Source: Gemmata obscuriglobus
GTDB lineage: Bacteria > Planctomycetota > Planctomycetia > Gemmatales > Gemmataceae
NCBI RefSeq assembly: GCF_008065095.1
Contig: NZ_CP042911.1
Coordinates: 4,860,001 to 4,892,000 of the forward strand
Direction: 5' to 3'
Length of the DNA stretch: 32,000 nucleotides
The position numbers were made by a program, and so were the translations under genes. The notes beneath the pieces are model-generated. The model was not told the origin of the DNA, ran no database searches, and saw only the letters and a list, made by a program, of their open reading frames with translations. Below, piece after piece: positions 5,433-22,083 of the stretch. How positions within the stretch are numbered: position 1 is the first letter of the stretch; each line of letters begins with the position of its first letter.

Positions 5433-6385
5433 CACCACGGCGTGTACCTCAGTCCGAACAGGCACAGTACGCCCAGCAGCAGCAGAGCCATCGCCACAAT
5501 CACGAACGGTTCGTAATAGTCGACCGTGTCCGCAATCGTCGGCTTGAGTTGGGCCTGCTTCATGGTGTCGATCTTCTTGAACACGGCGGGCAGCGCGTCC
5601 GGGTCGTCGGCACGGAACGCTTCGCCGCCGGTGAGCCGACAAATGTTGACGATCTCCGCTTGCGGCTCAAACCCACCTACGATGATACAAAACACCGCCA
5701 CCCCTTCGGCACTCAGGGTGCGAGCGATCTCTTCGTCGTTACCCGTGAGATCGTAACTGAACCCGTCGGTGATGAGGACGATCATTTTGTCGCCCTCGTC
5801 GCGGCGGCGCAGTTCCGTTTTGCACCCGTTCAGCGCCTTGGCGATCGCCGTACCGCCGAACGGCGGCGGCACCGTCTCCGGCCGCATGAACGGCGGCGAG
5901 CACCGGATCGCGGTCACGTCGGTGGTGAGCGGCACCCAGTGGACGAACGCGTCCCCGAAGAAGGTGAGCCCGAACGCGTCCCCCTTGCGGAAGTCCAGGA
6001 ACGTGTCGATCGCCTTCATGGAGGCGTCGTACCGGTTCCCGTCGCCGAACGGCGCCAGCATGCTGCCGGACACGTCCACGGCGAACTGGATGTTGGTGAG
6101 TGATCGCTTTTGCTGCGGCGGGCCGTTCCGCTGCGGGTTCGCGAGGATCAGCACCGCGACCGCCAGTAGCAGCGGCGGCACCGATTCCGCCAGCGTGATG
6201 AGCGTCCACACGAACCACCCACCGCGAGCGCGGGCACCGTCGAGCGGTAGCACGACCCGGCGGGTCGGGAGCAACCAACGGCCGGCCCACACCCACCCGA
6301 GCATGAGCGCAGGAACGACCAGCGCGACCAGCACCGGGACGTGCGCGAACTGCGGCCAGACGAGAGGAATTTCTTTGTAGTTCAC
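5432..6385 (-). CDS. VWA-domain membrane protein (BatA-like)
   Basis: GTG at 6383-6385 overlaps the upstream stop (GTGA, 4-nt overlap). N-terminus VNYKEIPLVWPQFAHVPVLVALVVPALML, a second TM span, MIDAS-type QFAVDVSGSM and a C-terminal TM span FVIVAMALLLLGVLCLF. Confidence 0.85.
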   Translation of the reverse strand: MNYKEIPLVWPQFAHVPVLVALVVPALMLGWVWAGRWLLPTRRVVLPLDGARARGGWFVWTLITLAESVPPLLLAVAVLILANPQRNGPPQQKRSLTNIQFAVDVSGSMLAPFGDGNRYDASMKAIDTFLDFRKGDAFGLTFFGDAFVHWVPLTTDVTAIRCSPPFMRPETVPPPFGGTAIAKALNGCKTELRRRDEGDKMIVLITDGFSYDLTGNDEEIARTLSAEGVAVFCIIVGGFEPQAEIVNICRLTGGEAFRADDPDALPAVFKKIDTMKQAQLKPTIADTVDYYEPFVIVAMALLLLGVLCLFGLRYTPW

Positions 6386-7233
6386 GCCGCGCCCCTCACT
6401 TCGAGATCGAGCGCTTCGGGGGGCAGATCGCGGTACGGGGCCAGCAACGCGGCCACATCGACCGGTTGCACCGGCCCGGGCCGGTGCAGCCACACCTCCA
6501 GTTGAGCGAGGAGCGGTGCGGCGTCGGGCTGTTTGCGCATCGCCTCGATCGCCTCACCCGGCTCCGCGCCTTCGAGTTTGAGCCGCTTCCGCCAGTACGC
6601 GAGCAGGGCCCGCTCCAAATCCGCCAGTTGCGCCCGCGAGAGAGTCCCCGCGGTCGCGCCCTCAACCAACGGCCGCAACCGCTCTGCGAGCGACACCGGA
6701 CGGCGGTCGGCGTCGGCGACCGCCCTCTTCCGTCGTGGGAAGAAGAACGATGCCACGACCGCGATCAGCCCCAGAGCCCACACCACGACAGCACCGATTG
6801 CGAGGAACCGGTAGCCGCCGAGACGCGAACCGGTGTCGATTTCGAGCTTGTTCGGCTGCACCTGTCCGGGCGGCAGCACCGGCTTCACCTGCACCGCGAT
6901 CGGCGGCAACTCGCCCAACGGCGATCCGTCCTTGCGCTTGAGGTACTGGCGCAGGTCGTGCGTGCCGGGCTCGAGGCCGAAGTACTCGATGTCGTAGCGG
7001 AACGCGGTGCCGTGAGGAAAAACGCGGACCACACGGACCACGGCCTTGGCCGTTCGGTCGGTGAGCGGCGCAGCCTCCAGTTCGGAACCGGGCAACACGA
7101 GGCCCTCGAGCGTTCCCGTCATGCCGACGGTGGTCTCGGTCTGTGCCCTGGCGCGATCGGCGGGCGCGAGCAGCGCAAGAACGCACGCGAGCGCCGCGGT
7201 ACGGAAGAGTTCGGCCGGACGGCGGTGTGTCAT
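6382..7233 (-). CDS. Single-pass membrane protein occupying the slot held by DUF4381 in Bat operons
   Basis: ATG at 7231-7233. Signal-like N-terminus AALACVLALLAPADRARAQ, an extracytoplasmic segment of about 110 aa, the TM span FLAIGAVVVWALGLIAVVASFFF, and a helical C-terminal tail. The DUF4381 relationship is inferred from position and topology only. Confidence 0.7.
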   Translation of the reverse strand: MTHRRPAELFRTAALACVLALLAPADRARAQTETTVGMTGTLEGLVLPGSELEAAPLTDRTAKAVVRVVRVFPHGTAFRYDIEYFGLEPGTHDLRQYLKRKDGSPLGELPPIAVQVKPVLPPGQVQPNKLEIDTGSRLGGYRFLAIGAVVVWALGLIAVVASFFFPRRKRAVADADRRPVSLAERLRPLVEGATAGTLSRAQLADLERALLAYWRKRLKLEGAEPGEAIEAMRKQPDAAPLLAQLEVWLHRPGPVQPVDVAALLAPYRDLPPEALDLEVRGAA

Positions 7234-7269
7234 TGCCCGTTTGCCTCACGCCTTCTGCTTGTGGTTCGC

Positions 7270-8130
7270 TCACCGCCGCCCGCGCCCGAGCACGTTGCGG
7301 CCGATCAAAAAGTTGCGCAGGTCCGCGACGAACGGTTGGTCCGTGCGCACCAACAAGTGGTCGACCCCGGCGCGTTTGAGTTGCCGGGCGGTGCGCTCGG
7401 CATCCACCCACCGGCGCGAGCCGCGGGTGACGAACACGCGCCCGGTCTCGGCCTCACCAGCCCGCAAAAATCCTGTACCCGGGACGCCCTCTTCGGCGGG
7501 GTCCTGGAGCTGAATCACGATCACGTCGTGCCGCTGCGCCATGAGCTTCAGCGCGGGCACCGCCGTCGGGTCGTGCAGGTCGCTGAGCGCGACCACCAGG
7601 CACCGGTTCGGCAGGGTCGGCGCCAACTCGGCGACCCGCCGGCCCAGCGTCGTGTGCTCGTCGTACCGGTACCGCCGGAACTCGTGCAGCCACCGCAGCA
7701 CAGCGGCCCGCGACAGGCTCGGCTCGAGCCGCACGTCCCGCCCGCCGACGCCGAGCACCCCGACCGGGCTGACCCGGTCCAGACACGCGAACGCCAGCGC
7801 GCCGGCGATGTGGACCGCGACCGCGTACTTGCTCCGCTTCACCGAACTCACGGTCATGGACGCCGAGGTGTCGAGCAGCAGGTAGCACGGAAGCTGCTTG
7901 GGCGCCTCGTACTCCTTGACGAACACCTTCCCCATGCGGGCCGTGATGCGCCAGTCGATGGACCGCACCGGGTCGCCCGGCTGGTACTGGCGCGACTGCG
8001 CGTACTCGATCCCGGAGCCCAGGAAGGGCGACCGGTCGGTGCCGTAGTTGAGCGCGTCGGCCAGCTTCTTGACCGCGATCACGAACTGGCGCGCGGTCAG
8101 GTGGTCGGCGGTGTCGAGCTGCCCGTCCAT
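7270..8130 (-). CDS. DUF58-family protein (VWA-like MoxR partner)
   Basis: ATG at 8128-8130, 3 nt after the MoxR stop. Contains the characteristic QYQPGDPVRSIDWRITARMGKVFVKEYE block and LLLDTSASM. Confidence 0.9.
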   Translation of the reverse strand: MDGQLDTADHLTARQFVIAVKKLADALNYGTDRSPFLGSGIEYAQSRQYQPGDPVRSIDWRITARMGKVFVKEYEAPKQLPCYLLLDTSASMTVSSVKRSKYAVAVHIAGALAFACLDRVSPVGVLGVGGRDVRLEPSLSRAAVLRWLHEFRRYRYDEHTTLGRRVAELAPTLPNRCLVVALSDLHDPTAVPALKLMAQRHDVIVIQLQDPAEEGVPGTGFLRAGEAETGRVFVTRGSRRWVDAERTARQLKRAGVDHLLVRTDQPFVADLRNFLIGRNVLGRGRR

Positions 8131-8133
8131 GTG

Positions 8134-9180
<1,047 letters not shown>

Positions 9181-9398
9181 CCGCAGCTCCCGTGGGTTCT
9201 TGGATCCAGACAGACGTCGCTGCCCCGCGACGGTTTCAGACAAAAGCGATACGCGGCCCGCAATCACGGAGCGGCCGGTCGGTTCGGTTGCAAAAAACGC
9301 AAGAGAGAATAACTGTATACACGAAGATAAACGCGACGCCAAGAGCGAACTGGATTTCGTCCGCTTTACCTCCAAGTGATCTCAACCTGCTAATACTT

Positions 9399-9439
9399 GG
9401 CGCCGTCGGTCGCTCGGCTTGGCGAATCGCGACGGCGCC
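9399..9439. other. Perfect 10-bp stem (ggcgccgtcg / cgacggcgcc) with a 21-nt loop in the non-coding island
   Basis: Direct reading: 9399-9408 is the exact reverse complement of 9430-9439. Function unknown. It lies about 220 nt upstream of the moxR start. Confidence 0.3.
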
Positions 9440-10442
9440 ACGGGGGGATCGCAGGACAACCGGCTCGCGCCGACACAGTAGACATCAAAATCAACTCCGA
9501 CACAACACCCCGAATGACCTTTGCGTGATCTCGCCGTTGTCACTCGCAAAAACGGCACACGCGGAATCGTGTTGCCAGACGAGCGCGAGCGCATTTCTTG
9601 CCCATACTCGGAGCGGTCAAAGCCCGTACACCGGGTACTTTTCCGCCTGAACGTTCCTGAGGTGAACCTTCACGGAGCCGCGACAAGCAGAATCCGCACC
9701 ACACGACTGACCAGACATTGACTTCCACTCCCAGGAACATAGCCACATTCTTGAATCAAAATGCCGCAACCTCCATCCCGACAGCAATTTGCAGCATCCG
9801 AGGCGAACACATTGAGCTGAATCCGAGTTGTCCTGGCAACCGCAACCGGGCACTCGTCTGGCCGTTTTTCGGGGTAGCAAACAACTAGCGAACTGGTAGC
9901 GGTTTGCCATCGGACTGGCAGCGAATGTCCAGTTGGCACCCCATCGGGTTCCTCCGTACTCCCGAGTTCTGCCGAGACAGCCCAAATTCCGGAGTCTAAA
10001 ACGATATCCTCACTGTAAGATTTATACACTACGTCATCGCGACCCACACTGGCTCGGTGCATTTGGAACTACCACCGCCCCCACACTGAACAGATGGCAA
10101 GAGCGTGTTCGGCCGCGCCATCAAACAACCGCCTGCACATTCGCAATGTGATTTTGTTGACCGGAGGGACTCTTCCACACCTTGGCCGAGCACAAACTTC
10201 TTTGATGAATGGCCGCGACTCACGTTCACAAAGCAAGTCGCGCCATTATTGCACACCAAAGCTAATCAATTAAATTTACATTATTTACGGCATTTTGGAG
10301 AGGTGATACACCAGTCGTTCACGAAAAACGTGACCTTTCTTTTTCACCGACCATTCATGATGTGGCTTTGCATCGTCTCGCGGGCGCGGCCATTGCTCCA
10401 TATCGCTTGTTTCGCTCGTGTTTCTTATCCGTGAGGGCATGT

Positions 10443-10815
10443 ATGAAGGGCTTTCTCCGATCCCGGCGTGCCGGCTTTACGCTCATTGAACTGTTGGTGG
10501 TTATTGCAATCATCGCCATCCTGATCGGTCTGCTCCTGCCGGCCGTTCAGAAGGTCCGCGAAGCCGCATCGCGCGGCGAAGTGTCAGAACAACTTGAAGC
10601 AAGTTGGGCTGGCGATGCACAACTTCCACGATGTCTATAACGGGTTCCCGGTGGAAGGGTCGACGCAGGGGGTAAGCTGGCCGATCCGCATCCTGCCGTA
10701 CATCGAGCAGGGTAACGTTTACAACTTGGTGTTCCCCCTGTTCCAGACCGCCATCAACACGGAGAAGACGGGTGGTGACGTTCTTTCCCTTCCGCCGGAA
10801 GTCTCGATGGGCTAG
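10443..10815 (+). pseudogene. DUF1559 / prepilin-type N-terminal methylation-domain protein, frameshifted and 3'-truncated by an IS
   Basis: [44 protein letters not shown] is the canonical type-IV-pilin-like leader of planctomycete DUF1559 proteins. The family-typical continuation [19 protein letters not shown]...[17 protein letters not shown] is in the +1 frame (track ORF 10594-10815). One extra nucleotide near 10575 (gcgcGgcg) separates the two frames. Family-like sequence stops at about 10768, where the IS1-like inverted repeat begins. Confidence 0.85.
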
Positions 10816-12048: not shown

Positions 12049-12303
12049 AACGCCCGACACGGCACGCGAAGCAGTAGGCGTTTCAGAAAACCCGCCGACT
12101 CAACGCACAGAACCACTCCGAGAAGTAAAATACGCACATCCGGTACGAACGCCTGCCACGAATTGGTGCCCGCGCAAGGCGTGGACGTATCGTCGTTTAC
12201 TGTGCACCGCGTTCACGTCTCTGGTGTCGCCCGTGGCCTGAACACGGGGCACCAAAGCGATAGGACGTGGCGCGAGTCGCCGTTTGTCTTCAAGGATCGC
12301 CGC

Positions 12304-15156
12304 GTGCGCCTGAGCCTCGTCGTTCTGATTTCGGCCGTTCTGTCTACCGGACCGGTGTATGGGGCGGACCCGGTGTGCGCCCTGCTGGACCCGGACAAGC
12401 ACCCGCGCGTGACCCTGTTGGAGGCCCGATTGCTCACGCAACCGGGCGCCACCTGGGTCGAGCGCACAGCGATCGATAAGGTGCTTAAGGAGCAGAAGCT
12501 TCAGGCCCTTCTTGCGCCACAAGGCGTCGGCGACCGGGTCCGGTTCGGCAAACTACTCAAAGCCGATTTGCTGGTCACCGTTCGACCGGTCACGGGGACC
12601 GGCGCAACCGCCCTCGAAGTGATCGTCAGCGAGACCGTGGGCGGGTTGCGGCTCGCGGCCAGCGCCGTGCCCGTAACCGGTGACGCCGATGCCGATGTTG
12701 CGGCGCTGCTCGCGGCGGTGCGGGCGGGCGTCGTGCGGCACGGCGAGAAGGTCACGCAGGTGGTGGCCGTTCCGCCGTTCGTCAGCAACGACCTGGAACA
12801 CACTCACGACCACATGCGCGGCGCACTGGCCAAACTGGCCGAGGCCGAAGCGCTCGGGCGGAAGGGCGTCGTGGTGGTGGAACTCGCCGAGGCCGAAGCG
12901 CTGGCGAAGGAGCTCGCCCTTGCGGCCCCGGGCACCAAACTCGAGCGCCCGGCCCCGGTCTACCTCTTGGGCGAGTACCGGCACCAGGGCCAGGGCAACG
13001 AACGGACGATCGCACTGAAGCTCCGCGCCGAGCGCGCCGGTAAACCGGTCGGCAAGTCGGAAACGTTCACGCTGAAGCGCGACGCGGTGGCGGCGGCCGT
13101 GCGCAAGTGGTCGGCGGGTGCGATCGACGCGGGGACCGACGGCCCCGGCCGACAGCCCGCCGCTCCCGCAGCCGAAGCCGCGCAGCTTGCGGCTCGCGCC
13201 AAAACGGCCCTCCGGCTCGGCTACTGGGAGGAGGCCGTCGCCCTAGCGGAAGCGGCGCTCCTCGTCGATCCGACGCAGATCGACCTCCACGTGTTTGTGA
13301 TGATCGCTCTCGGCGATCCGCTCCGCAAGATCCACTGGCACGAGCTGAGTTCCAGGACGGACGGCCTGAAGGCCTTTCGCCGGTTCCTGCTCCTGTACCG
13401 CCGCGGGCTCGAGCATTTGGAGGCGTTTATCGACGCCGGCGGCGACCCGTCTCGCCATACGATGCGGGGAACGGGAGTCGATCAGTTGTTCCTGTCGTAC
13501 TTCCGCGGTCAGGCCTACTACTTAAGAACCGAACTCGTCACGATGCACCTGCACGCCCCGGAGGGGCCGGCGCTACTTGAAGAGGCCCGGCAGTTCGAGC
13601 GCGCCTTGTTCGCCCGGCTTCTGAAAGCCCCTCAGGTCGCTAACGCGTCCCAGGACGTTCACCTGCAGTTCGTTGCCCCCCTCCTTCACAACCTGTCGGC
13701 CGCCGAGCAGTACGCCGTTGTCGAGCGCCTGCTCGCGGGCCTGCCCGACGCCCCCGCCTCGGCGGAAAAGGCGCGCTGGTACCTGATACTGGGGTTTGAT
13801 GCGTTCGACCAGCCCGAGCAGGGCCGGCCGGCGGTGTTCAGAACGGGGCCGGCTTACGAGGCGTTCAAATCTCGCGTCCTGAACGAGAAATTCCGGTTCG
13901 CGGCCGTGGCGAAAGACGAGCTGGCGCGCGCCGAAAAGCGAGAGGCGGATTCGAAGAAGTACCGGCCCCCTGCTCCAGCCACGACGAGCGCGAGAGACGT
14001 TCGCCTGACGGCTCTTAAACTGGAACTCCCGGTTCTCCCGAACCGGCCGGCGCGACCGCTCCTCGGGCTGGTGGCGGCCGGCCCGAATCTCGATGTGGCG
14101 TGGGACGGAATGGCCGTTTACGTCACGAAGGAGAAGGGGCAGTTCGAGCGACTGGCCCCATCCGCAACGTGGCCGAGCTTACCCGAGAGCGTTATTTTCG
14201 ACGGAAAGTACGTGTGGGCCTCGGGCATGGACGTGAACCCCAAGATCGGGGTCACCGGCTGGTTCTTGACGGCCACAGACCCAGTTGCGGGTAAGACCTG
14301 GAACCTGACGAAAACGGACGGGTTGCCCGCCCCACCCGCGCTGACCGAGGTTCAGTGGCGCAGTGAGCGCCCGCTGGCCATCGCGGCGCTGGGACCGGGG
14401 CGCGTGTGCGTTGCCGGCGCGGCAGGCCGCGCCTGGGTGGCGACGTTAACATTTAACCCCGCGACCGGCGGGACGGCTAAGGTGCTTCACGAAGCGCGAG
14501 AGGCTCCGGACCGGCTCGAGAAGGACCAGTGGAAAAAAACGAACGTGAAGTTCATGCCGGGGTCCGTCCGCGTCCTCACGGGCGCGTCCGCGGACGGCCA
14601 ACCGGTCACCCGCATCGTGGTGGGGCGGAGCATCGGCGACACCCCCGAGATCAGTGCGCGACCTCTGATCATTGATCCCGATCGAGCGACCACGGAAGTG
14701 GTACCCGACTTGCGAGTCCCGTCATTCGACCCGCGAGCCGGGAACCGCGGCAAAGGTCCTATGCTCAACGGAAAGCTGTTCTTTCAAGAACCGACCCTGT
14801 ACGGCGAGCAGCGGCTGATGCGGCTCACCGTTCCCGGTCCGGTGAGCGAAGTGGTCGCCACCGGTTTGCCGCGCAATGTTTGGTTCATTCACCCGGACGG
14901 CCAGCGGTTCCATGTGATCGAGCATGTGTTCATCCCCCCGCCTGCCGGCGCACAGGCCCCCGCACGCTGGACCTCCAACTGGTGGGTGGTGGAACCGGGA
15001 GCAACCCGCGCCCGGCTCGCCGCTTCGGGGCTGCCGCACATTAGCTGGGTCGGGACCAGTGCGCACTACGGGCTCGTTGCCCTGGGTGAGTCCGACGGCC
15101 CTGACCGCACAACGAACTTCTACAAGGTTGAGGTTGCCGCCCCGGCCGGTAAGTAA
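12304..15156 (+). CDS. Secreted 950-aa protein: two degenerate LpoB/CsgG/FlgO-like modules, a helical middle and a beta-rich C-terminal region; function unknown
   Basis: The track ORF 12163-15156 has no ATG before the signal peptide. GTG at 12304 gives (M)RLSLVVLISAVLSTGPVYG/ADP. The segment WVERTAIDKVLKEQKLQ...GKLLKADLLVTV resembles LVDRTDLKKTLEEQRLS...GQLIGARLIVTG of the kinase ectodomain. Strong GC3 codon bias throughout. Confidence 0.85.
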   Translation: MRLSLVVLISAVLSTGPVYGADPVCALLDPDKHPRVTLLEARLLTQPGATWVERTAIDKVLKEQKLQALLAPQGVGDRVRFGKLLKADLLVTVRPVTGTGATALEVIVSETVGGLRLAASAVPVTGDADADVAALLAAVRAGVVRHGEKVTQVVAVPPFVSNDLEHTHDHMRGALAKLAEAEALGRKGVVVVELAEAEALAKELALAAPGTKLERPAPVYLLGEYRHQGQGNERTIALKLRAERAGKPVGKSETFTLKRDAVAAAVRKWSAGAIDAGTDGPGRQPAAPAAEAAQLAARAKTALRLGYWEEAVALAEAALLVDPTQIDLHVFVMIALGDPLRKIHWHELSSRTDGLKAFRRFLLLYRRGLEHLEAFIDAGGDPSRHTMRGTGVDQLFLSYFRGQAYYLRTELVTMHLHAPEGPALLEEARQFERALFARLLKAPQVANASQDVHLQFVAPLLHNLSAAEQYAVVERLLAGLPDAPASAEKARWYLILGFDAFDQPEQGRPAVFRTGPAYEAFKSRVLNEKFRFAAVAKDELARAEKREADSKKYRPPAPATTSARDVRLTALKLELPVLPNRPARPLLGLVAAGPNLDVAWDGMAVYVTKEKGQFERLAPSATWPSLPESVIFDGKYVWASGMDVNPKIGVTGWFLTATDPVAGKTWNLTKTDGLPAPPALTEVQWRSERPLAIAALGPGRVCVAGAAGRAWVATLTFNPATGGTAKVLHEAREAPDRLEKDQWKKTNVKFMPGSVRVLTGASADGQPVTRIVVGRSIGDTPEISARPLIIDPDRATTEVVPDLRVPSFDPRAGNRGKGPMLNGKLFFQEPTLYGEQRLMRLTVPGPVSEVVATGLPRNVWFIHPDGQRFHVIEHVFIPPPAGAQAPARWTSNWWVVEPGATRARLAASGLPHISWVGTSAHYGLVALGESDGPDRTTNFYKVEVAAPAGK

Positions 15157-15244
15157 GCCGCTACCCTGGCACCTTTGCCAGGCCCCAGAGCCGGCCAACG
15201 CACTTGTAAGTTGAACCGGGAACGGGAAACCACCGAACTCAGTT

Positions 15245-15874
15245 ATGAACCCATCTCACGCGACGGGCGCGGACCCCGGGTCCACTCAGGCGGGCCTGAT
15301 CGCCGGCGTTCAGCAAGGCGACCCGAGCGCCTGGCGCCAGCTCACGGCCGTCTACGGCCCGCTCGTTTACGGATGGGCACGACGGGCCGGGCTCCACAAC
15401 GAGGACGCCGCCGACATCACGCAAGAGGTGTTCCGGTCGGTCGCCGCCCGCGCGTCGCGCTTCCAACACGGCCGCCCGGGCGACACCTTTCGCGGGTGGC
15501 TCTGGACCGTCACCCACAACAAGCTCCGCGACTTCTGGCGGCAGCGGGCCGTTCGCCCGCAAGCGGCCGGCGGGACCGACGCGCAGGACCGGTTACTGCT
15601 GATCGCCGAGAGCGGCTCCGACAGCCGGCCCGGGCTCGCGGCCGAATCGGAAGGGTTGCTCCGGCGGGCAATGGAACTGGTGCGGGCCGAGTTCGAGCCG
15701 CGGAGCTGGGACGCCTTCTGGCGCGCTGCCGTCGAGGGTCACCCCGGCGCGGACATCGCACGCGAGCTGGGGATGACCGTCAACGCCGTTTACATCGCCC
15801 GGTCCCGCATCCTGAACCGCCTCCGCGAGTTACTCGGCGAAGACTCCGCCGGAATCGGTGGGGCACCGCAGTGA
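15245..15874 (+). CDS. ECF-type sigma-70 family factor
   Basis: Region 2-like DAADITQEVFRSV...TFRGWLWTVTHNKLRDFWR and a region 4 helix-turn-helix GADIARELGMTVNAVYIARSRILNRLRE. About 209 aa, the usual ECF size. Confidence 0.9.
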   Translation: MNPSHATGADPGSTQAGLIAGVQQGDPSAWRQLTAVYGPLVYGWARRAGLHNEDAADITQEVFRSVAARASRFQHGRPGDTFRGWLWTVTHNKLRDFWRQRAVRPQAAGGTDAQDRLLLIAESGSDSRPGLAAESEGLLRRAMELVRAEFEPRSWDAFWRAAVEGHPGADIARELGMTVNAVYIARSRILNRLRELLGEDSAGIGGAPQ

Positions 15875-15980
15875 CGGACACTTCCGGCCGGAGTTATTAC
15901 GCTGCAAGAACGCGTGAAAGGTGAGGCCGTTATCTTGGTTGAGCGGTCACGGGAGCCGTACCTGTACCCCGGCAGCGATC

Positions 15981-18248
15981 ATGCGCCACGTTGCGATCAA
16001 CACCTGTTGCCCGGACCGCGAGATGTGGTCCAGCTTTTATGCGGGCATGGTGCCCGCCGGCGCGATCGACGGGCTCGTTGAACACCTGGACCACTGCCCG
16101 ACGTGTCAGGGCGTACTCCACGCCCTGGCCGGCGAGACGGTGGGGCAGGCCGACGCCCTGTTCGCGAACCTCCAAGGCACACCCGGCCAGGCGGACGCTT
16201 ACGAGGCCGAGGCGGAGTGCCGCCGGGCGGTGGAACGCGCCCAGTTGCTGGTTCCAGGGGAAGTGAGCGAGCCCGCCACCATAACGCTCCCGAGTCAACT
16301 AGGGGAATACCGGCTGCTCCGGCTGATCGGCCGCGGCGGCATGGGGAACGTGTACCGCGCCGTACATGTCCGGCTCGGTCGCGAGGTCGCACTCAAGGTC
16401 ATTCCACCGGAGCGGGTGCGGGACACGGCGCTGGCCCGGTTCCAGCGTGAGATGATCGCCCACGGGAAGCTCGACCACCCGAACGTCGTCCGAGCAACGG
16501 ACGCCGGAGAGGCGAACGGGACCGCGTTCCTGGTCATGGACCTGGTGGACGGGATCGACCTCGACGGGTTAGTCCGCGGCTGCGGCCCGCTACCGGTTGC
16601 GGACGCGTGCGCACTCGCGCGGCAGGCCGCGGCCGGGCTGCACCACTTGAGCGGTCACGGCCTCGTCCACCGCGACGTGAAGCCGTTGAACCTCATGCTC
16701 GACCGCGGGGGAACGGTCAAGGTGCTCGACCTGGGGCTCGCGGCCCGCACCGACCCGGCCCCCGTGGTAGCCGAGGCCAGTACGGCGGACACGGCGCTCA
16801 CCAGCGACGGACAAATTCTCGGCACGTTCGATTATTTGCCCCCAGAACAGGCGGCCCCGACCGGGACGGTCGACGCCCGGGCTGATGTGTACGGCCTGGG
16901 CTGCTCGTTGTACTTCCTGCTCACCGGCGCCGCCCCGTATGAAGGAACGGCGCACGCCACCCCGCGGAGCAAGGTTCTCGCCCACACCGTGGGGCCGGTG
17001 CCACAGGTCCGGAGCAGCCGCCCGGACGTGCCGGCGCCCCTCGCACGGGTTCTGTCGCGGATGCTGGCGAAAAACCCTGAACACCGGTTCCCGAGCGCCG
17101 ACGCTGCCGCCGAGGCGCTCGCGCCGTTCTGCGCGGGCGCCGATCCGGCGAGCCTCTTGCGCCGCGCGGGGTTCGAGCCGCTTCCGTCCGCCCCCCTTCC
17201 CTTACCGACCGCGGTCCGAGCCCCACGCGCCCGGCGGGCGTGGATCGCGGCCGGCGCGTTCGTCGCGCTTCTGCTCGCCGCCGGCACGCGTCAATGGCTA
17301 CCGTCCGCAACGGTCGCTCCCGCCGAGCCCCCGGCGCAACAAACCGAGCCGGCGAAACCGCCAGACCCGAAACGCGCCGCCGTTCGGGCCGTTCCGGTCG
17401 CGCTCTTGGGGTTCGACGAGCGCGGCGGGGCGGCCAGCGGGCTCGGCGGCGCCGTGAGCGACCTGCTGTTCGCAAAGCTGGTCGCGAAGCCCGGGTTTCA
17501 CCTCGTCGACCGCACGGACCTGAAGAAAACGCTTGAAGAGCAGCGGCTCAGCCTCTCGGGCGCGGTCAGCCCCACCGAGGCCGTCCGGGTCGGGCAGTTA
17601 ATCGGTGCCCGGCTGATCGTCACCGGCTCTGTGGTCCGGGCGGACGGGCGTCTTCACCTCGTTGCCAAGATCATCGGCACCGAGACCACACAGGTCACCG
17701 GGGCCGCTGTTGCGGGCGCGATCACCGAGGACCTGACGGCGCTCGTCGAGCGGTTGGCCGGCGCGGTCGAAGATGCGGTGAACCGGCACGGCGATCGGTT
17801 GCTCCCCGCGTCGGTTCCGGTCGCGGATCGGATCGCTGCGCTCAACAAACGGCTCGGGACCGCCCCCCGCCCGGGCGTCGGGGTGAGGACGACCGAGCGC
17901 GAGTTCGGGCTACCGGCCGCCGGCGCAGCGGCGCGAACGGAGATCACGAAATACGCAAAAGAAACGGGGTTCGAAGTAACGAGCCCGGACCGGGCGGCCG
18001 TGGTCATCACCGGCAATGCGTTCAGTGAGGTGATCGGCCGCGCCGAAGGCTTGGTGAGCGTGCGCGCGCGGGTGGAGCTGAAAGCAACGGACCGGAAAAC
18101 CGGCAAGATCCTGGCGGAGGACCGGCAAACTGCGATCGTGGTCGATTTGGCCGATTCGGTCGCCGCACACGCGGCGGTTCAAAGTGCCACCGCCGAACTC
18201 GTCGAGCGATTGCTACCCCGACTCGTCACCCCCGACCCGAAGCCGTAA
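15981..18248 (+). CDS. Membrane Ser/Thr protein kinase with an N-terminal anti-sigma-like zinc motif and a two-module extracytoplasmic domain
   Basis: ATG at 15981 (alternative GTG at 15921). HLDHCPTC (H-x3-C-x2-C) at 16083-16106. Hanks kinase motifs: GRGGMGNVY, VALKVI, HRDVKPLNLML, DLGLA, FDYLPPEQ. One TM span WIAAGAFVALLLAAG at about 17241-17290. The ectodomain from about 17391 begins VPVALLGFDERG. Confidence 0.9.
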   Translation: MRHVAINTCCPDREMWSSFYAGMVPAGAIDGLVEHLDHCPTCQGVLHALAGETVGQADALFANLQGTPGQADAYEAEAECRRAVERAQLLVPGEVSEPATITLPSQLGEYRLLRLIGRGGMGNVYRAVHVRLGREVALKVIPPERVRDTALARFQREMIAHGKLDHPNVVRATDAGEANGTAFLVMDLVDGIDLDGLVRGCGPLPVADACALARQAAAGLHHLSGHGLVHRDVKPLNLMLDRGGTVKVLDLGLAARTDPAPVVAEASTADTALTSDGQILGTFDYLPPEQAAPTGTVDARADVYGLGCSLYFLLTGAAPYEGTAHATPRSKVLAHTVGPVPQVRSSRPDVPAPLARVLSRMLAKNPEHRFPSADAAAEALAPFCAGADPASLLRRAGFEPLPSAPLPLPTAVRAPRARRAWIAAGAFVALLLAAGTRQWLPSATVAPAEPPAQQTEPAKPPDPKRAAVRAVPVALLGFDERGGAASGLGGAVSDLLFAKLVAKPGFHLVDRTDLKKTLEEQRLSLSGAVSPTEAVRVGQLIGARLIVTGSVVRADGRLHLVAKIIGTETTQVTGAAVAGAITEDLTALVERLAGAVEDAVNRHGDRLLPASVPVADRIAALNKRLGTAPRPGVGVRTTEREFGLPAAGAAARTEITKYAKETGFEVTSPDRAAVVITGNAFSEVIGRAEGLVSVRARVELKATDRKTGKILAEDRQTAIVVDLADSVAAHAAVQSATAELVERLLPRLVTPDPKP

Positions 18249-18334
18249 CGCCGAACCCGGACCGCGATTCTTATGCGCCCTCCTGAAGCACCCGTCCGGG
18301 GCGGGGAGGAACAACCCGAGTGGGAGACCGAACA

Positions 18335-19351
18335 ATGACGAGCGTGCGCATCGTGCTCGCGGTGTCTGCGGTGCTGGTGTGCGGCCTCCTCCCGGCCGCG
18401 GCCTTCGGTCACGGACCGGACAAGGTCAGCGACAAAGCCAAGGACAAGCAAACCAAAGGGGGTAAGGACAAACCCGTCCTTCCGGTGGCCCTGCTGGGCT
18501 TCGACGAGCGCGGCGCCGGCGCGAAGGGGCTCGGCCCAAAGGTCACGGACCTGTTGTTTCTGAAACTCGCGGCACGGACCGAGTTCTTTCTGGTGGACCG
18601 CGCGGACCTGAAGAAGGCGCTCGACGAGCAGGTGTTGAGCCTGACCGGTGCGGTCAAGGCCGACACGGCGGTGACGGTCGGACAACTCACCGGCGCCAAG
18701 TTGCTCATAACGGGGTCCGTGGTTCAGATCGACAAACGGGTCCACCTGATCGCCAAGGTCATCAGTTCCGAGACCGGCCGGGTGGTCGGTGCCTCCGCCG
18801 AGGGGACGCTCTCGGACGATCTTGAAGGGCTCGTAGCTCAACTTGCCAACGTGATCACCGGAGTGACAATCAAGCAACGCGACCGGCTTTTGCCCGCGCC
18901 GGTCCCGGTCGCGGACCGTACCGCCGCACTCAACCGCAAGCTCGGCAAAGCCGCCCGCCCCACGATCGCAGTGCGCGTGACCGAACGGCACGTCGGCCAA
19001 CCGACCGCGGACCCGGCCGCACAGACGGAAATCACCAAACGCGCCAGGGCTCTGGCGTTCGAGGTGATCGACTTGGACGCGGACGGCGAAAGTCGTGCGG
19101 ACGTGTTCGTCACGGGCGAAGGGCTCAGCGAGGCGGCCGGCCGAGTCGGGCCGCTGGTCAGTGTGCGGGCGCGCGTCGAATTAAAAGCGATCGATCGCCG
19201 AACCGGCAAAGTGCTCGCGGTGGACCGTCACACATCGGTCGTGGTCGATTCGTCCGAACAGATCGCGGGCAAGACCGCACTCCAAAGCGCGGCCGCACTC
19301 CTGGCAGAGCGTGTGCTGCCACAACTCGTTACGGTGGAAAAGAAAAAGTAA
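18335..19351 (+). CDS. Secreted paralogue of the kinase ectodomain
   Basis: ATG at 18335 is preceded by GGGAGA. Signal peptide MTSVRIVLAVSAVLVCGLLPAAAFG. The rest is colinear with kinase residues encoded from about 17391 to 18248, with shared blocks LPVALLGFDERG, LVDR-DLKK-L-EQ-LSL-GAV, DRLLPA-VPVADR-AALN and LVSVRARVELKA-DR-TGK-LA. Confidence 0.85.
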   Translation: MTSVRIVLAVSAVLVCGLLPAAAFGHGPDKVSDKAKDKQTKGGKDKPVLPVALLGFDERGAGAKGLGPKVTDLLFLKLAARTEFFLVDRADLKKALDEQVLSLTGAVKADTAVTVGQLTGAKLLITGSVVQIDKRVHLIAKVISSETGRVVGASAEGTLSDDLEGLVAQLANVITGVTIKQRDRLLPAPVPVADRTAALNRKLGKAARPTIAVRVTERHVGQPTADPAAQTEITKRARALAFEVIDLDADGESRADVFVTGEGLSEAAGRVGPLVSVRARVELKAIDRRTGKVLAVDRHTSVVVDSSEQIAGKTALQSAAALLAERVLPQLVTVEKKK

Positions 19352-19416: not shown

Positions 19417-22083
19417 TTAATCCGCACCGGCAACGGGTAGTGTGAACGCGAACGCGGCTCCGCCGCCGTCAGCCGGGCGGGCACTGAGGTGCCCGCCGTG
19501 TGCCTCGATGATGCTCCGGCTGATCGCCAACCCCAACCCGGTGCCTTGCTCCTTGGTTGTGTAAAACGGCTCGAACACCCGCTCCAGTTCGTCCGGGCGC
19601 AACCCCGTGCCGGTGTCCGCCACCTCCACCCGTACACCGTCCGGGGCGCGCCGGGTCGTAATCGCGACCATGCGCGCCCCGGGCGGCGTGCCGGTCAGCG
19701 CTTCGGTCGCGTTCCGCAGGAGGTTCAACAGCACCTGCTCGATCTGAATCCGGTCGGCCTGAACCGGCGGCAGCCCCGCCCCCAAGTCGAGGGTCACCGC
19801 AACATGATGGTGCCGCAGCTCCGGACCGGCCAGCGCGAGGGCGTCGCGCACGGGGTCGTTCAGCTCGGTCGTGGACCGGTGCGGTGCCCGCTTGCGCATG
19901 AAGTCCCGCAGCCGCCGGATGATGCGCGCGGCGCGCTCCGCCTGGGCCACCGTCAGGTCGAGTACGTCGGCCACTTCGGCCGTCGTGCCCGTGCCCCCGC
20001 GGAGCCGCAGCGCGCCGCCCCGACAGTAGTTGATCACCGCCGTGAGCGGCTGGTTCAGCTCGTGCGCCAGCACCGCCGCCATCTCACCGACCGCCACGCA
20101 CCGGGCCACGTGCGCCAGTTCCGCCTGGTGCTGGTGCAGTTGCTCCTCGGCCCGCCATTGCGCGGTGGTGTCCGTGAGCGACGCCACCACAGGGAACGGT
20201 GCGCCGGTCCCCGGAAGCGCGTGAGCGTTCACAACCAGACGAACCGGCTCACCGTCCCGACCGCCGTCCAGGACCAGAACCACCCCCACGCACACGCCCC
20301 CGCCCAGGCGCACGACCTCCCACGGCAGCAGGTCCGCAGCGACCGGCAGCCCGTCCGCGCCCCGAACGCGCCCGAGCGTGTTACCGGGGCGCGTGCCGAG
20401 CAACCGATCGGTCGTGCCGCCGAAGATCCGCGCCGCGCTCTCGTTGGCCTTCAGCACCCGCCCGCCCGCGTCCAGCAGTAACACCCCTTCGTGCAGCGCC
20501 GACAGGATCAGCCGGTTGCGCTCGGCGCTCTCGCGCAGCGCCCGCTCTTGCTGCTTGCGAGCAGTGATGAACTGCATTGCGGACATGACCAGGTCCGGGG
20601 GCACGAACGAGTACGACACGAGCACGTCACCGTCCGGCCCCGCCGGCCCGACCCAGTCCACCCCGGCCCACCGGGACTCGCACTCGAACGCGCTCCGCTC
20701 CCGCAGGCACCGCGCCACGCTTGCCCGGTGGTCCGGTTGGTTCCGGTGCAGTTCCGAGAGCCGGCGCCCGAGCACCCGCGTGATTCCCCCGGCGGTGAGC
20801 CGCCGGGCGGCCTCGTTGCAGTCGGCCAGCACGAAGTCCGCCCCGTCACCTCTCCAGCACGCGGTCGCCAGTGGCGAGTTCTGGAACAGGTCACGGAAGC
20901 GGGCCTCGCTCGCGCGCAACGCGTCCGCGGCCCGAACGCGGTCGGTTACGTCCCGGCCCACCGACTGGAACCCGGTCACCCGCCCGGCGTCATCAAAGAA
21001 TGCCCGGTTCGTCCACTCATGCCACCGCAGTTCGCCCCCGGCGCCGATTACCCGGTTTTCGACCGAGGCGACGGGACGCGTGGGCGTGAGCGCCGCGAGG
21101 TGCCGGGCGACGTACTCCCGCTCCGGTTCCGGGAGCAGTTCCCAGAACCGGCGCCCGAGTAGCTGTTCAGGGGTTCGGCCGAAGTACCGACAGTACGGGC
21201 CGTTAACGTACGTGAGGGTGCCATCCGGGAGGGTCCGACAGAGCAACTCTGTTTGGGCCTCGACGACGCCGCGGAACCGCTGTTCGCTCTCCGCCAGCGC
21301 CCGCTCGGCGGCGCGACGGGCGGTCACGTCGTGGTGAACCACGACCGCGCCGCCCGATTCGTTCGGGAGCGGCTTGACAACCGCCCGGTACCACCGCTCC
21401 GCTCCGCCGCTCGGGCACGGGTACTCGGCGGCGAAGCGGTCCGCCGTTCCGCTCAGCACCGCGGCCAACCCGCCGCACATCTCGGCCGCCCCTGCGGAGT
21501 TCGGCCCGGCCACCTGGCGGCACGCGTCCAGGTAGTTCGCCCCGACCGCACAGCGCTGAGCGGGGCACCCGGTCGCGCGGGCGCACTCCTCCCACCCCGC
21601 GCTCGTGGCAACAATCACCCCGGAGCGATCGACGACCGCGACCAGTTCGTCGAGCGCACCAACCACCGCCCGGCCCAGGGCCGTCTCTGTGCCCCGCGCG
21701 GGCGTAACGTGCTCCGCTCGAACCACTGCCAGCACCGCCCCGCCGTGGAACGGCCGGACCGCGACCTCAACGGGGAACTCCGTGCCGTCCTTGCGGCGCC
21801 CCCGGATGCCGGGGCGGCGGCACACGGCCTGAACGTTCTGATCGGTCGCACGCGCGAGCCGATGTCGCTCGTGGTCGCGCCGCGCGCGGTCGGGCACGAG
21901 GGCGTCGAGGTGAACGTCGCACAGTTCCCCGGGGCCGTACCCGAACAGCACCTCTGCGGGGCGGTTGGCGGAGCCGATCACGCCGTCAGGGCCAACGACC
22001 AGAACACCGTCGCTTAGCGCATCGAGCACGAGTTCCGCCGACGGCCGACCGGGGTTCGAGGGAAGGTGTGAGGTGTCTGACAT
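19417..22083 (-). CDS. Soluble multi-PAS sensor histidine kinase
   Basis: ATG at 22081-22083. H-box HELNQPLTAV, N-box LLNLLRNATEAL, G1 DTGTGL, G2 GTGLGLAISRSI. The roughly 600 aa upstream consist of repeated PAS-like segments (about five by eye). No hydrophobic span is seen. Confidence 0.9.
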   Translation of the reverse strand: MSDTSHLPSNPGRPSAELVLDALSDGVLVVGPDGVIGSANRPAEVLFGYGPGELCDVHLDALVPDRARRDHERHRLARATDQNVQAVCRRPGIRGRRKDGTEFPVEVAVRPFHGGAVLAVVRAEHVTPARGTETALGRAVVGALDELVAVVDRSGVIVATSAGWEECARATGCPAQRCAVGANYLDACRQVAGPNSAGAAEMCGGLAAVLSGTADRFAAEYPCPSGGAERWYRAVVKPLPNESGGAVVVHHDVTARRAAERALAESEQRFRGVVEAQTELLCRTLPDGTLTYVNGPYCRYFGRTPEQLLGRRFWELLPEPEREYVARHLAALTPTRPVASVENRVIGAGGELRWHEWTNRAFFDDAGRVTGFQSVGRDVTDRVRAADALRASEARFRDLFQNSPLATACWRGDGADFVLADCNEAARRLTAGGITRVLGRRLSELHRNQPDHRASVARCLRERSAFECESRWAGVDWVGPAGPDGDVLVSYSFVPPDLVMSAMQFITARKQQERALRESAERNRLILSALHEGVLLLDAGGRVLKANESAARIFGGTTDRLLGTRPGNTLGRVRGADGLPVAADLLPWEVVRLGGGVCVGVVLVLDGGRDGEPVRLVVNAHALPGTGAPFPVVASLTDTTAQWRAEEQLHQHQAELAHVARCVAVGEMAAVLAHELNQPLTAVINYCRGGALRLRGGTGTTAEVADVLDLTVAQAERAARIIRRLRDFMRKRAPHRSTTELNDPVRDALALAGPELRHHHVAVTLDLGAGLPPVQADRIQIEQVLLNLLRNATEALTGTPPGARMVAITTRRAPDGVRVEVADTGTGLRPDELERVFEPFYTTKEQGTGLGLAISRSIIEAHGGHLSARPADGGGAAFAFTLPVAGAD

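Follow-up and report, generated by a model that had tools for sequence, protein, structure and literature searches.

A two-domain module shared by a predicted secreted protein and the ectodomain of a kinase beside an ECF sigma factor gene in Gemmata obscuriglobus

The locus and its products

The window analysed in this study is a stretch of 32,000 nucleotides from the planctomycete Gemmata obscuriglobus. In this window, an ECF sigma factor gene is followed by a gene with anti-sigma-like, kinase, transmembrane and ectodomain parts, and then by the gene of a stand-alone paralogue of that ectodomain. The features are listed by position, strand, identity and basis of assignment.

12163 to 15156, plus strand: large secreted protein (BIG, 997-aa ORF); hhalign, clustering and Pfam
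15245 to 15874, plus strand: ECF sigma factor, 209 aa; Pfam Sigma70_r2 and r4_2, TIGR02937
15981 to 18248, plus strand: hybrid kinase protein, 755 aa; Pfam Pkinase, translation and homologues
16083 to 16106, plus strand: H-x3-C-x2-C motif (HLDHCPTC) in the anti-sigma-like N-terminus of the kinase; 21 fused homologues
17229 to 17294, plus strand: predicted transmembrane helix of the kinase protein; translation and hydropathy
17391 to 18248, plus strand: kinase ectodomain, paralogue of the stand-alone protein; BLASTP, dN/dS and motif comparison
18335 to 19351, plus strand: stand-alone secreted paralogue, 338 aa; translation, AF2, fold matches and homologues
about 18335 to 18409, plus strand: signal peptide of the stand-alone protein, with a Lys-rich linker next to it; translation
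about 18479 to 18874, plus strand: domain 1 of the stand-alone protein; AF2 model and fold
about 18908 to 19327, plus strand: domain 2 of the stand-alone protein; AF2 model and fold

The sigma factor and kinase genes share a strand and are 106 bp apart, and the kinase and stand-alone genes are likewise on the same strand, separated by 86 bp without a strong terminator. A scan of the locus for promoters and terminators found no convincing site, and the intergenic regions, about 88% alike with those of G. algarum, are too similar for footprinting. The likely start of the kinase gene is ATG 15981, corresponding to the 755-aa protein on record. For the stand-alone gene it is ATG 18335, with GGGAGA 7 nt upstream. 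These two starts, and the ectodomain start at 17391, agree with the first-pass annotation of this DNA.

The sigma-2 motif of the sigma factor, which matches Sigma70_r2, r4_2 and TIGR02937, reads DAAD in the window and DA[A/S]D in six orthologues, and its two Asp residues are kept. Orthologues were found upstream of kinase-fused genes in L008, L026, L043, L044 and L048, and the sigma-kinase neighbourhood is kept in five other loci. From N- to C-terminus, the 755-aa protein consists of a zinc-motif anti-sigma-like region, a Hanks Ser/Thr kinase, one transmembrane helix, a Pro-rich linker and a double-domain ectodomain, an architecture common to 21 homologues. Its Pfam matches are Pkinase (E 1e-41) and a partial CsgG match. 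All catalytic elements of the kinase (PF00069) are present in the translation (GRGGMG, VALK, HRDVKPLN, DLG and PPE), so far as sequence can tell an apparently active kinase. HLDHCPTC occupies ORF residues 55-62, with an upstream Cys (in CCPD) 25 residues earlier. Among the 21 fused homologues, the H and both C of the motif are invariant and the upstream C is nearly invariant. The zf-HC2 profile (PF13490) is matched by 9 of these 21 (best 2.3e-5, above the cut-off in L026), and gave no match to the window protein at E <= 0.01. By these motifs the kinase N-terminus is a zinc-motif anti-sigma-like region, putatively of the ZAS type. The hydropathy maximum of the ORF lies at residue ~442. Because the positively charged RAPRARR precedes the predicted helix, the C-terminal domain would be placed outside the cytoplasmic membrane by the positive-inside rule.

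BLASTP of the 775-aa ORF (15921-18248) against the 343-aa ORF (18320-19351) returned one colinear alignment (E 3e-94), pairing residues 459-774 of the kinase ORF with 23-342 of the other; 173 of 322 positions are identical (54%), with 8 gap positions. The domain proper is 57% identical across 286 aligned codons, and the Lys/Pro-rich linkers preceding the domains are not alignable between the two proteins. Judged by sequence, the kinase ectodomain and the downstream product are true paralogues. The first-pass annotation had described them as colinear over about 290 aa with about half of the positions identical, and the alignment bears this out; both peptide pairs that it quoted were found in the translations. 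Low-complexity similarity does not account for the match, which spans two folded domains with pLDDT mostly above 90. A six-frame protein search and a family HMM found exactly these two copies of the module in the 9.0-Mb genome.

At its N-terminus, the translated stand-alone protein has a signal peptide of the classical Sec kind that lacks a lipobox, in keeping with the secretion first proposed for it. The only Cys of the signal peptide is preceded by V-L-V, unlike [LVI][ASTVI][GAS]C; AAA/AFG sites of the SPase-I type come after it, and the homologues have no conserved Cys. Since the product of 18335-19351 combines a Sec signal peptide and the absence of a lipobox with purifying selection, it is predicted to be a real secreted protein.

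Fold of the shared module

The AF2 model of the stand-alone protein (pLDDT 85) consists of two compact alpha/beta domains. Foldseek with this model retrieved LpoB, CsgG, TolB, PelC and LptE at E 1e-6 to 1e-4. By VIA, domain 1 matches an LPHT ring chain (Z 13.2), TolB (Z 13.2) and LpoB (Z 11.5), and domain 2 matches CsgG (Z 12.1) and PelC (Z 11.6). As modelled, the module is thus two tandem alpha/beta domains of the fold seen in LpoB, TolB-N, the periplasmic part of CsgG, PelC and LptE. Proteins of this fold often assemble into oligomeric rings, as do CsgG, PelC and TraT. LpoB, CsgG, PelC and LptE are outer-membrane lipoproteins, TolB being the exception. Both domains of the module share the fold of these proteins (Z 10-13), but the Gemmata module family differs from them in having no conserved lipobox and in being a tandem double domain.

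Weak Pfam and NCBIfam matches of the module are to CsgG, LpoB, LptE and FlgO. Membership in the LpoB family was rejected: both profile scores fall below the cut-off (TIGR02722, 18.7 bits against 110.55; PF13036, 17.9 against 22.3), and the likeness is one of fold only (Z 11.5).

Distribution and evolution of the two forms

The stand-alone protein has more than 478 homologue clusters. Among 80 metagenome loci, 75 have the stand-alone form, 4 the fused form and 1 both; among genome loci, the stand-alone form occurs in 26 of 28. Within Gemmatales, about nine genomes have the stand-alone form only, six the fused form only and three both. In a single fusion, P0139, the module is placed behind a sigma-TM protein instead of a kinase. 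These sequence counts indicate that the stand-alone family is large, extends across Planctomycetota and relatives, and is the widespread form, with kinase fusions as a minority. Since most genomes have just one form, interaction between the forms cannot be the general function of the module.

The canonical operon comprises an ECF sigma factor, a single-pass anti-sigma-like protein, a secreted 350-aa protein (C3), the stand-alone protein (S) and secreted proteins of 1000-1400 aa that each carry one module together with TPR or beta-propellers. C3 is adjacent to the stand-alone gene in 73 of the 80 metagenome loci, and the sigma factor and the single-pass anti-sigma-like protein open the operon in about 30 of them. 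The 997-aa protein of the window, single-copy in its genome, clusters with the 1000-1400-aa neighbours of stand-alone genes, which in Pfam carry CsgG/FlgO plus TPR, WD40 or Kelch. Its residues about 84-196 are weakly related to domain 1 of the module (hhalign of A1 against the ORF, E 3e-4, 26% identity), and residues 293-383 give only a sub-threshold Pfam BTAD match. NCBIfam holds no family for this protein, for C3 or for C6. Relative to the canonical operon, the gene order in the window is rearranged and IS elements lie on its flanks. C3, elsewhere a near-universal neighbour, is absent from the window genome, so the way in which this locus works may differ from that of the canonical operon.

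Fused ectodomains are polyphyletic and nested among local stand-alone sequences (delta lnL 297, p-AU 1e-48), in trees that are unrooted and in which the key node for the window lineage is a polytomy. A lineage-specific clade, as expected from lineage-specific duplication, was not rejected by the AU test (p 0.59). Independent grafts, gene conversion or repeated fission could each account for the polyphyly. Fused and stand-alone proteins of the same genome are 57, 58, 64, 65, 70, 82 and 84% identical, the shared-genome placing of P0007/P0128, P0008/P0126 and P0074/P0144 being putative, from protein-database records. Fused ectodomains of different lineages are 46-63% identical among themselves. 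The same-genome copies with 82-84% identity are those of G052 and a 10-Mb genome. In G052, a nucleotide identity of 79% is limited to an 865-bp domain segment, and each gene lies in its own canonical context. The greater likeness of same-genome pairs than of fused ectodomains across lineages suggests that duplication at the domain level, or gene conversion, happened repeatedly, and we infer that the module was repeatedly copied or converted between stand-alone and kinase genes.

The first-pass annotation had also read the pair as a tandem duplication in which just the sensing half was retained. A recent duplication by which the receptor shed this half is not supported: synonymous sites of the pair are saturated, the stand-alone form is widespread with a synteny of its own (C3-S-BIG), and the minority of fused forms is nested and polyphyletic. 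From these sequence comparisons, the reverse direction is therefore the likelier one, a module that stood alone having been grafted onto a zinc-motif-kinase scaffold.

For the window pair, recent gene conversion was rejected, as codon identity at conserved residues equals the expectation from codon usage (71 identical codons observed, 68.9 expected) and identical runs reach 16 nt at most. The side-by-side pair is also kept in G. algarum. Against that genome, dN/dS is 0.08-0.14 for the kinase ectodomain and 0.11-0.13 for the stand-alone protein, about 0.1 for both. By these measures the window pair is old, and both copies are under purifying selection. In the kinase copy, domain 1 is well conserved and domain 2 has lost ERHxG, DPAAQTE, GEGxSE and EQxAGK. 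The stand-alone copy of the window keeps all family-invariant positions; these positions were defined on stand-alone sequences, on which stand-alone copies score high by construction. Some fused proteins with no known stand-alone copy in the same genome are eroded too (38-39 of 47), and the trend of domain-2 erosion covers about five independent lineages. The window pair has probably been sub-functionalised.

A possible role in ECF signalling

The reading that we favour, and hold to be somewhat probable, is that the module serves an ECF signalling system as its periplasmic input, that it was repeatedly copied or converted, that the window pair is old and sub-functionalised, and that the secreted paralogue sets the activity of the kinase. 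The fusions would then act as Rosetta stones. Copying or conversion between genes would mean, most simply, that each product has to go on recognising the other or a partner common to both. The secreted paralogue, presumed to be co-transcribed with the sigma factor and the kinase, would bind the kinase ectodomain or share its periplasmic partner, for which the upstream 997-aa protein is a candidate. Kinase activity set in this way would free the sigma factor from the zinc-motif domain. The kinase copy would have kept domain 1, with the conserved surface motifs of domain 2 altered. Repeated homogenisation of a receptor ectodomain and its soluble paralogue would be a testable signature of co-function. 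The likeness of fused and stand-alone copies within a genome is, as a side observation, supportive of functional coupling.

A narrower proposal, possible but rather doubtful, is that the secreted paralogue and the kinase ectodomain form mixed oligomers, by analogy with the rings that this fold builds. How much of the secreted protein is present, or in which state, would then directly gate the anti-sigma/kinase hybrid, and recurrent gene conversion would keep the interface matched. If true, this would be a bacterial form of soluble-receptor-paralogue feedback, with concerted evolution across Planctomycetota and relatives.

The decoy or partner logic suggested at first is plausible. In its strict form, in which the secreted paralogue titrates the periplasmic ligand of the kinase ectodomain as a co-transcribed negative-feedback buffer, we regard it as unlikely. 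The common fold, the 57% identity, the almost complete conservation of domain 1 in both copies, the adjacency of the genes without a strong terminator and the similarity of same-genome pairs in several lineages are all what a competitor would show. However, the two copies are unlike in the family-invariant motifs of domain 2, so the predicted binding surfaces are not identical. Moreover, the stand-alone form occurs without any kinase copy in most genomes, and thus receptor buffering would not be its primary role.

It is likewise improbable that no signalling link exists, that the secreted protein is an envelope component working with the TPR and propeller proteins, perhaps as regulon output, and that the kinase ectodomain senses something else and is its neighbour by accident. 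The company of C3 and BIG rather than kinases in most loci fits such an account, as do the diverged domain 2 of the kinase copy and the rearranged, IS-flanked window locus without C3. It is countered by the sigma and anti-sigma-like genes that open canonical operons, by the fusion of the module to kinase or sigma-TM in independent proteins, and by the adjacency kept in G. algarum. The 82-84% same-genome identities are also hard to explain without function-tied selection or exchange.

That the stand-alone protein is a CsgG/HfaB-type outer-membrane channel, whose oligomers would form a pore for fibres of the curli or holdfast kind, is very improbable: the source names ('CsgG/HfaB family protein'), a Pfam CsgG match above the gathering score (PF03783, 47.1 bits against 20.8) and the closeness of domain 2 to CsgG suggest it, but in both proteins the match spans no more than positions 35-105 of the 210 in the profile, the signal peptide belongs to the SPase-I type and has no lipobox, LpoB, TolB-N and PelC are equally good structural matches, and no locus examined has csgE/F/A/B-like neighbours. 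Whole-chain alignments to CsgG have an rmsd of 7-10 A. The AF2 model, which is of a monomer only and from which refolding is possible, has no extended beta-hairpins and so differs from CsgG with its membrane hairpins. The names of the stand-alone proteins are likely mis-annotations, and these proteins are probably not curli channels.

Taking the favoured reading of the module as ECF input, several known systems can be compared. Planctomycetal kinase-linked ECF groups were reportedly defined by Jogler in 2012; Gemmata belongs to the phylum in which such pairs were first catalogued. ECF sigma factors with a neighbouring Ser/Thr kinase include EcfP-PknT of Vibrio parahaemolyticus and EcfK-PknS of Xanthomonas citri, and kinase-linked groups are ECF43, ECF59-62, ECF217, ECF267 and ECF283 (PMC7826278, PMC8103513). 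As in these two pairs, the Gemmata sigma gene lies directly upstream of a gene encoding a Hanks kinase that sits in the membrane and has an extracytoplasmic domain; the Gemmata ectodomain differs in having a secreted paralogue. In kinase-activated ECFs, the sigma-2 DAED motif is replaced by uncharged residues with phosphorylatable Ser/Thr (PMC8103513), and kinase-linked groups typically have no anti-sigma factors (PMC7826278). The Gemmata sigma factor, in contrast to EcfP with its phosphorylated uncharged motif, keeps the acidic DAAD, and the kinase itself bears a zinc-motif anti-sigma-like N-terminus. On both counts the Gemmata pair departs from a phospho-switch of the EcfP/ECF43 type, with which it shares the sigma-kinase adjacency. 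By its sequence, the hybrid would join sequestration (zinc motif) to phosphorylation (kinase), a departure from the published view of such groups as free of anti-sigma factors.

In the sigma-E system, RseB, whose fold is LolA-like, binds the periplasmic domain of the single-pass anti-sigma factor RseA. The canonical order of sigma factor, single-pass anti-sigma-like protein and secreted proteins resembles rpoE-rseA-rseB-rseC (PMC8103513), which suggests a soluble periplasmic protein modulating a transmembrane sigma regulator. The Gemmata module differs from RseB in fold and in being also fused to the regulator, and no components of a proteolytic cascade like that of sigma-E were seen at the loci. 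Sensor kinases with a free or fused periplasmic binding protein are known from LuxP-LuxQ, TorT-TorS and BvgS-type fused VFT proteins. The logic is the same, a periplasmic module being either soluble or fused to a transmembrane signalling protein, whereas the fold and the output (histidine kinases) are unrelated. To our knowledge, the soluble protein and the sensor domain of those systems are not usually side-by-side paralogues. Literature searches for CsgG with kinases in Planctomycetes, for zf-HC2 with Pkinase and for COG5616 found nothing relevant.

Most of what is known about kinase-linked ECFs, whose input signals are obscure, comes from genome context; the Gemmata case would add a periplasmic input module that is defined and foldable. 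Three wirings of it occur: the module stands free next to an anti-sigma-like protein, forms part of an anti-sigma/kinase hybrid, or is joined to a sigma-TM protein. These wirings would link the widespread, uncharacterised 'CsgG/HfaB family' protein to sigma-factor signalling. Other zinc-motif kinases of the window genome have ectodomains that are repeat proteins, matching dozens of loci.

Paralogous ORFs of the window locus

From 12.1 to 19.4 kb of the window, four ORFs are found, all co-oriented on the forward strand.

ORFs of the window locus
12163-15156, +, 997-aa ORF
15245-15874, +, ECF sigma factor with Sigma70_r2 and r4_2 domains
15921-18248, +, 775-aa ORF, kinase protein (likely start ATG 15981, giving 755 aa)
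18320-19351, +, 343-aa ORF, stand-alone protein (likely start ATG 18335, GGGAGA 7 nt upstream)

According to the first-pass annotation, the kinase ectodomain (17391-18248) and the neighbouring product (18335-19351) are colinear and about half identical. This was confirmed by BLASTP, which returned a single colinear alignment between the 775-aa and 343-aa ORFs (54% identity over 322 residues, E 3e-94), and the quoted peptides were found in both translations. Across the 286 codons of the folded domain, identity is 57%. When the complete 9.0-Mb genome was searched in six frames with a protein query and a family HMM, just these two copies of the module were found.

The dN of the pair is 0.34 and the dS about 1.06. 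Where both copies have the same residue, 71 codons match exactly compared to 68.9 expected from codon usage alone, and the longest run of identical nucleotides is 16 nt. The synonymous sites are randomised, and therefore no recent duplication or conversion occurred at the locus. The nearest relative, Gemmata algarum, carries both genes at 88% identity in the identical order, large protein, sigma factor, kinase, stand-alone protein. In comparison with it, the kinase ectodomain has a dN/dS of 0.08-0.14, the stand-alone protein one of 0.11-0.13 and the kinase domain one of 0.09-0.15; both window copies are kept by selection.

The stand-alone product starts with a Sec-type signal peptide (MTSVR, hydrophobic core, AAA/AFG) that lacks a lipobox; a Lys-rich linker then leads to the module. 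In an AlphaFold2 model built from 59 homologues (mean pLDDT 85), residues 54-185 and 197-336 form a tandem pair of alpha/beta domains. Foldseek matched the model to LpoB, CsgG, TolB, PelC and LptE (E 1e-6 to 1e-4). In an exhaustive VIA search, domain 1 scored Z 13.2 with an LPHT-ring chain, 13.2 with the TolB N-domain and 11.5 with LpoB; domain 2 scored 12.1 with CsgG, 11.6 with PelC and about 10 with LptE. The database name of the family, 'CsgG/HfaB family protein', denotes fold kinship rather than a curli channel: the Pfam CsgG match covers only positions 35-105 of the 210 in the profile, and for the LpoB equivalog the score is 18.7 bits, far below its cut-off of 110.

Two further features adjoin these genes. 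Directly past the stop of the 997-aa ORF lies an inverted repeat, CCCTGGCA...TGCCAGGG (15163-15183), a possible hairpin at which the transcript ends or is processed between the genes for the large protein and sigma; G. algarum retains the stem with a different loop, and a T-run after the repeat is absent. An 888-aa multi-PAS histidine kinase (PAS x4, HisKA, HATPase_c; 19417-22083, -) is convergent with the stand-alone gene at 65 bp, and no connection with the locus was seen.

Distribution and gene neighbourhoods

Stand-alone homologues form more than 478 clusters at 50-70% identity, chiefly in Planctomycetota, and similar clusters exist in Verrucomicrobiota and Lentisphaerota. By genome the family is patchy: 18 of the 267 Gemmatales species genomes have it, and so do 8 of 400 genomes sampled evenly across the phylum. 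According to ORF clustering and tblastn at 28 genome loci, 16 Gemmataceae loci and 80 metagenome loci, two modules recur.

Recurring gene orders and their components
Type A: ECF sigma, C6, C3, stand-alone protein, one to three large secreted proteins
Type B: window-type ECF sigma, zinc-motif/kinase/TM/ectodomain protein (fused form), C3, large protein
C6: about 288 aa, single-pass, no Pfam match
C3: about 350 aa, secreted, no Pfam match
Type A large proteins: 1000-1400 aa, secreted, CsgG/FlgO-like module with TPR, WD40 or Kelch

The 80 metagenome loci comprise 75 stand-alone (upstream sequence was long enough to exclude a kinase in 50 of the 75), 4 fused and 1 with both forms (L095), and C3 adjoins the module in 73. 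Among Gemmatales genomes, about 9 carry only the stand-alone form, 6 only the fused form and 3 both (the window genome, G. algarum and G052). C3 was not found in the window genome, even by profile HMM (best E 0.088), and the G. algarum locus likewise lacks it.

The 997-aa type of large protein is single-copy in the window genome, and its residues 84-196 show weak homology to domain 1 by hhalign (E 3e-4). At one locus (L036, G259:C393, 9587-17995), a pair of C3 and stand-alone genes is followed by three tandem paralogues 40-42% identical to the 997-aa protein; this large partner is prone to tandem amplification.

History of the free and fused forms

In domain trees (FastTree, 146 rows; IQ-TREE, 84 rows, with only complete fused proteins and stand-alone proteins bearing signal peptides), free and fused forms are interleaved. 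A single clade of fused ectodomains was rejected by the AU test (delta lnL 297, p 1e-48). The clearest evidence on duplication history is the identity matrix of pairs from one genome or contig.

Identity between fused and stand-alone forms
Window: 57%
G. algarum: 58%
P0128/P0007: 64%
L095: 65%
P0144/P0074: 70%
P0126/P0008: 82%
G052: 84%

Fused ectodomains from different lineages share just 46-63% identity. The two genes of G052 are separated by 10 kb, each in its own canonical context (sigma-kinase; C3 and stand-alone gene), and are 79% identical in nucleotides across exactly the 865-bp domain segment, with no identity in the flanks. Most simply, this pattern would reflect recurrent copying of the domain, or recurrent gene conversion, between stand-alone and kinase genes. 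By tblastn, the fused gene of G052 (L045, G052:C18:250000-269999, 6242-9331) has its sigma and kinase segments split over two frames, owing either to a frameshift in the gene or to indel errors in a long-read MAG; despite this, its ectodomain is 84% identical to the stand-alone copy.

The fused proteins of the window, G. algarum and P0128 form a clade with support of 99-100. The fused and stand-alone clades of the window lineage both branch from a polytomy of stand-alone sequences of Gemmata-like type. A tree that joins the two in one clade was not rejected (p 0.59), and therefore a lineage-specific event is possible. To this extent the earlier proposal of a tandem copy retaining only the sensing half stands; its direction is likelier the reverse, as distribution and nesting, the only evidence on this point, favour, without proving, transfer from the stand-alone to the fused form.

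The two domains have diverged unequally in the window's kinase copy. Among 89 positions invariant or nearly so in stand-alone proteins, and hence defined on stand-alone sequences, the window stand-alone copy keeps 87 and the kinase ectodomain 73, with 39 of 42 kept in domain 1 versus only 34 of 47 in domain 2. The domain 2 motifs ERHxG, DPAAQTE, GEGxSE and EQxAGK are changed in the window, G. algarum and P0128, and P0126 has domain 2 shortened by a 9-residue deletion. The motifs are intact in the majority of remaining fused proteins (median about 45 of the 47 positions); only about 5 independent lineages carry both forms for such comparison.

The kinase hybrid and its probable control of sigma

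The 755-aa protein bears CCPD...HLDHCPTC in its N-terminal region, continues with a Hanks kinase domain (Pkinase E 1e-41; Gly loop, VALK, HRD, DLG, PPE) and a single hydrophobic helix that follows RAPRARR, and ends in a Pro-rich linker and the ectodomain. The H-x3-C-x2-C motif is conserved in all 21 complete fused homologues and the upstream Cys is nearly invariant. Pfam zf-HC2, the anti-sigma zinc finger, is matched by 9 of the 21, and the window protein has no match at E <= 0.01. The window genome holds at least ten hybrids of zinc motif and kinase with other ectodomains, of repeat type. In at least nine further kinases, listed below, the motif precedes the kinase domain and the C-terminal parts are large and of repeat type; they are one paralogous family.

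Further genes with H-x3-C-x2-C and kinase domain, G000:C1 (window genome)
291263-293449
299736-302225
2580642-2584283
3143807-3147940
3555195-3557246
4329405-4332263
6351248-6353638
7486095-7489823
7549304-7552927

Since these hybrids carry other ectodomains, the zinc-motif, kinase and transmembrane part is a general scaffold for different sensor domains. StkP of Urbifossiella limnaea, a 517-aa kinase (P0150; L050, G250:C1:6850000-6868000, 9174-10646, minus), contains only domain 1 (111 aligned residues, 65-67% identity), and may be a truncated or single-domain variant.

The module has three settings: alone next to an anti-sigma-like protein, as part of the anti-sigma/kinase hybrid, and joined to a sigma factor with a transmembrane segment. 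The last setting is represented by P0139, a 624-aa metagenome protein: one polypeptide holds an ECF sigma, a hydrophobic stretch and this double-domain ectodomain, and would be a membrane-anchored sigma carrying its own sensor. We infer that the module serves an ECF system as its periplasmic input. In the EcfP-type switch, phosphorylation of an uncharged Ser/Thr motif permits core binding (PMC8103513). In contrast, the window sigma has an acidic DAAD, retained as DA[A/S]D in six orthologues, and therefore such a switch is not indicated. Sequestration of sigma by the zinc-motif domain, with release depending on the kinase, is more likely.

The putative partner role proposed earlier for the secreted paralogue would probably involve association with the kinase ectodomain or with the same periplasmic partner. 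That it is a pure decoy, or has no signalling role at all, are both live rivals to this partner role.

Kinase-linked ECF groups are already known (ECF43, 59-62, 217, 267 and 283), typically without anti-sigma factors (PMC7826278). A literature search found no paper tying a CsgG/LpoB-like domain, a kinase and an ECF sigma together in Planctomycetes.
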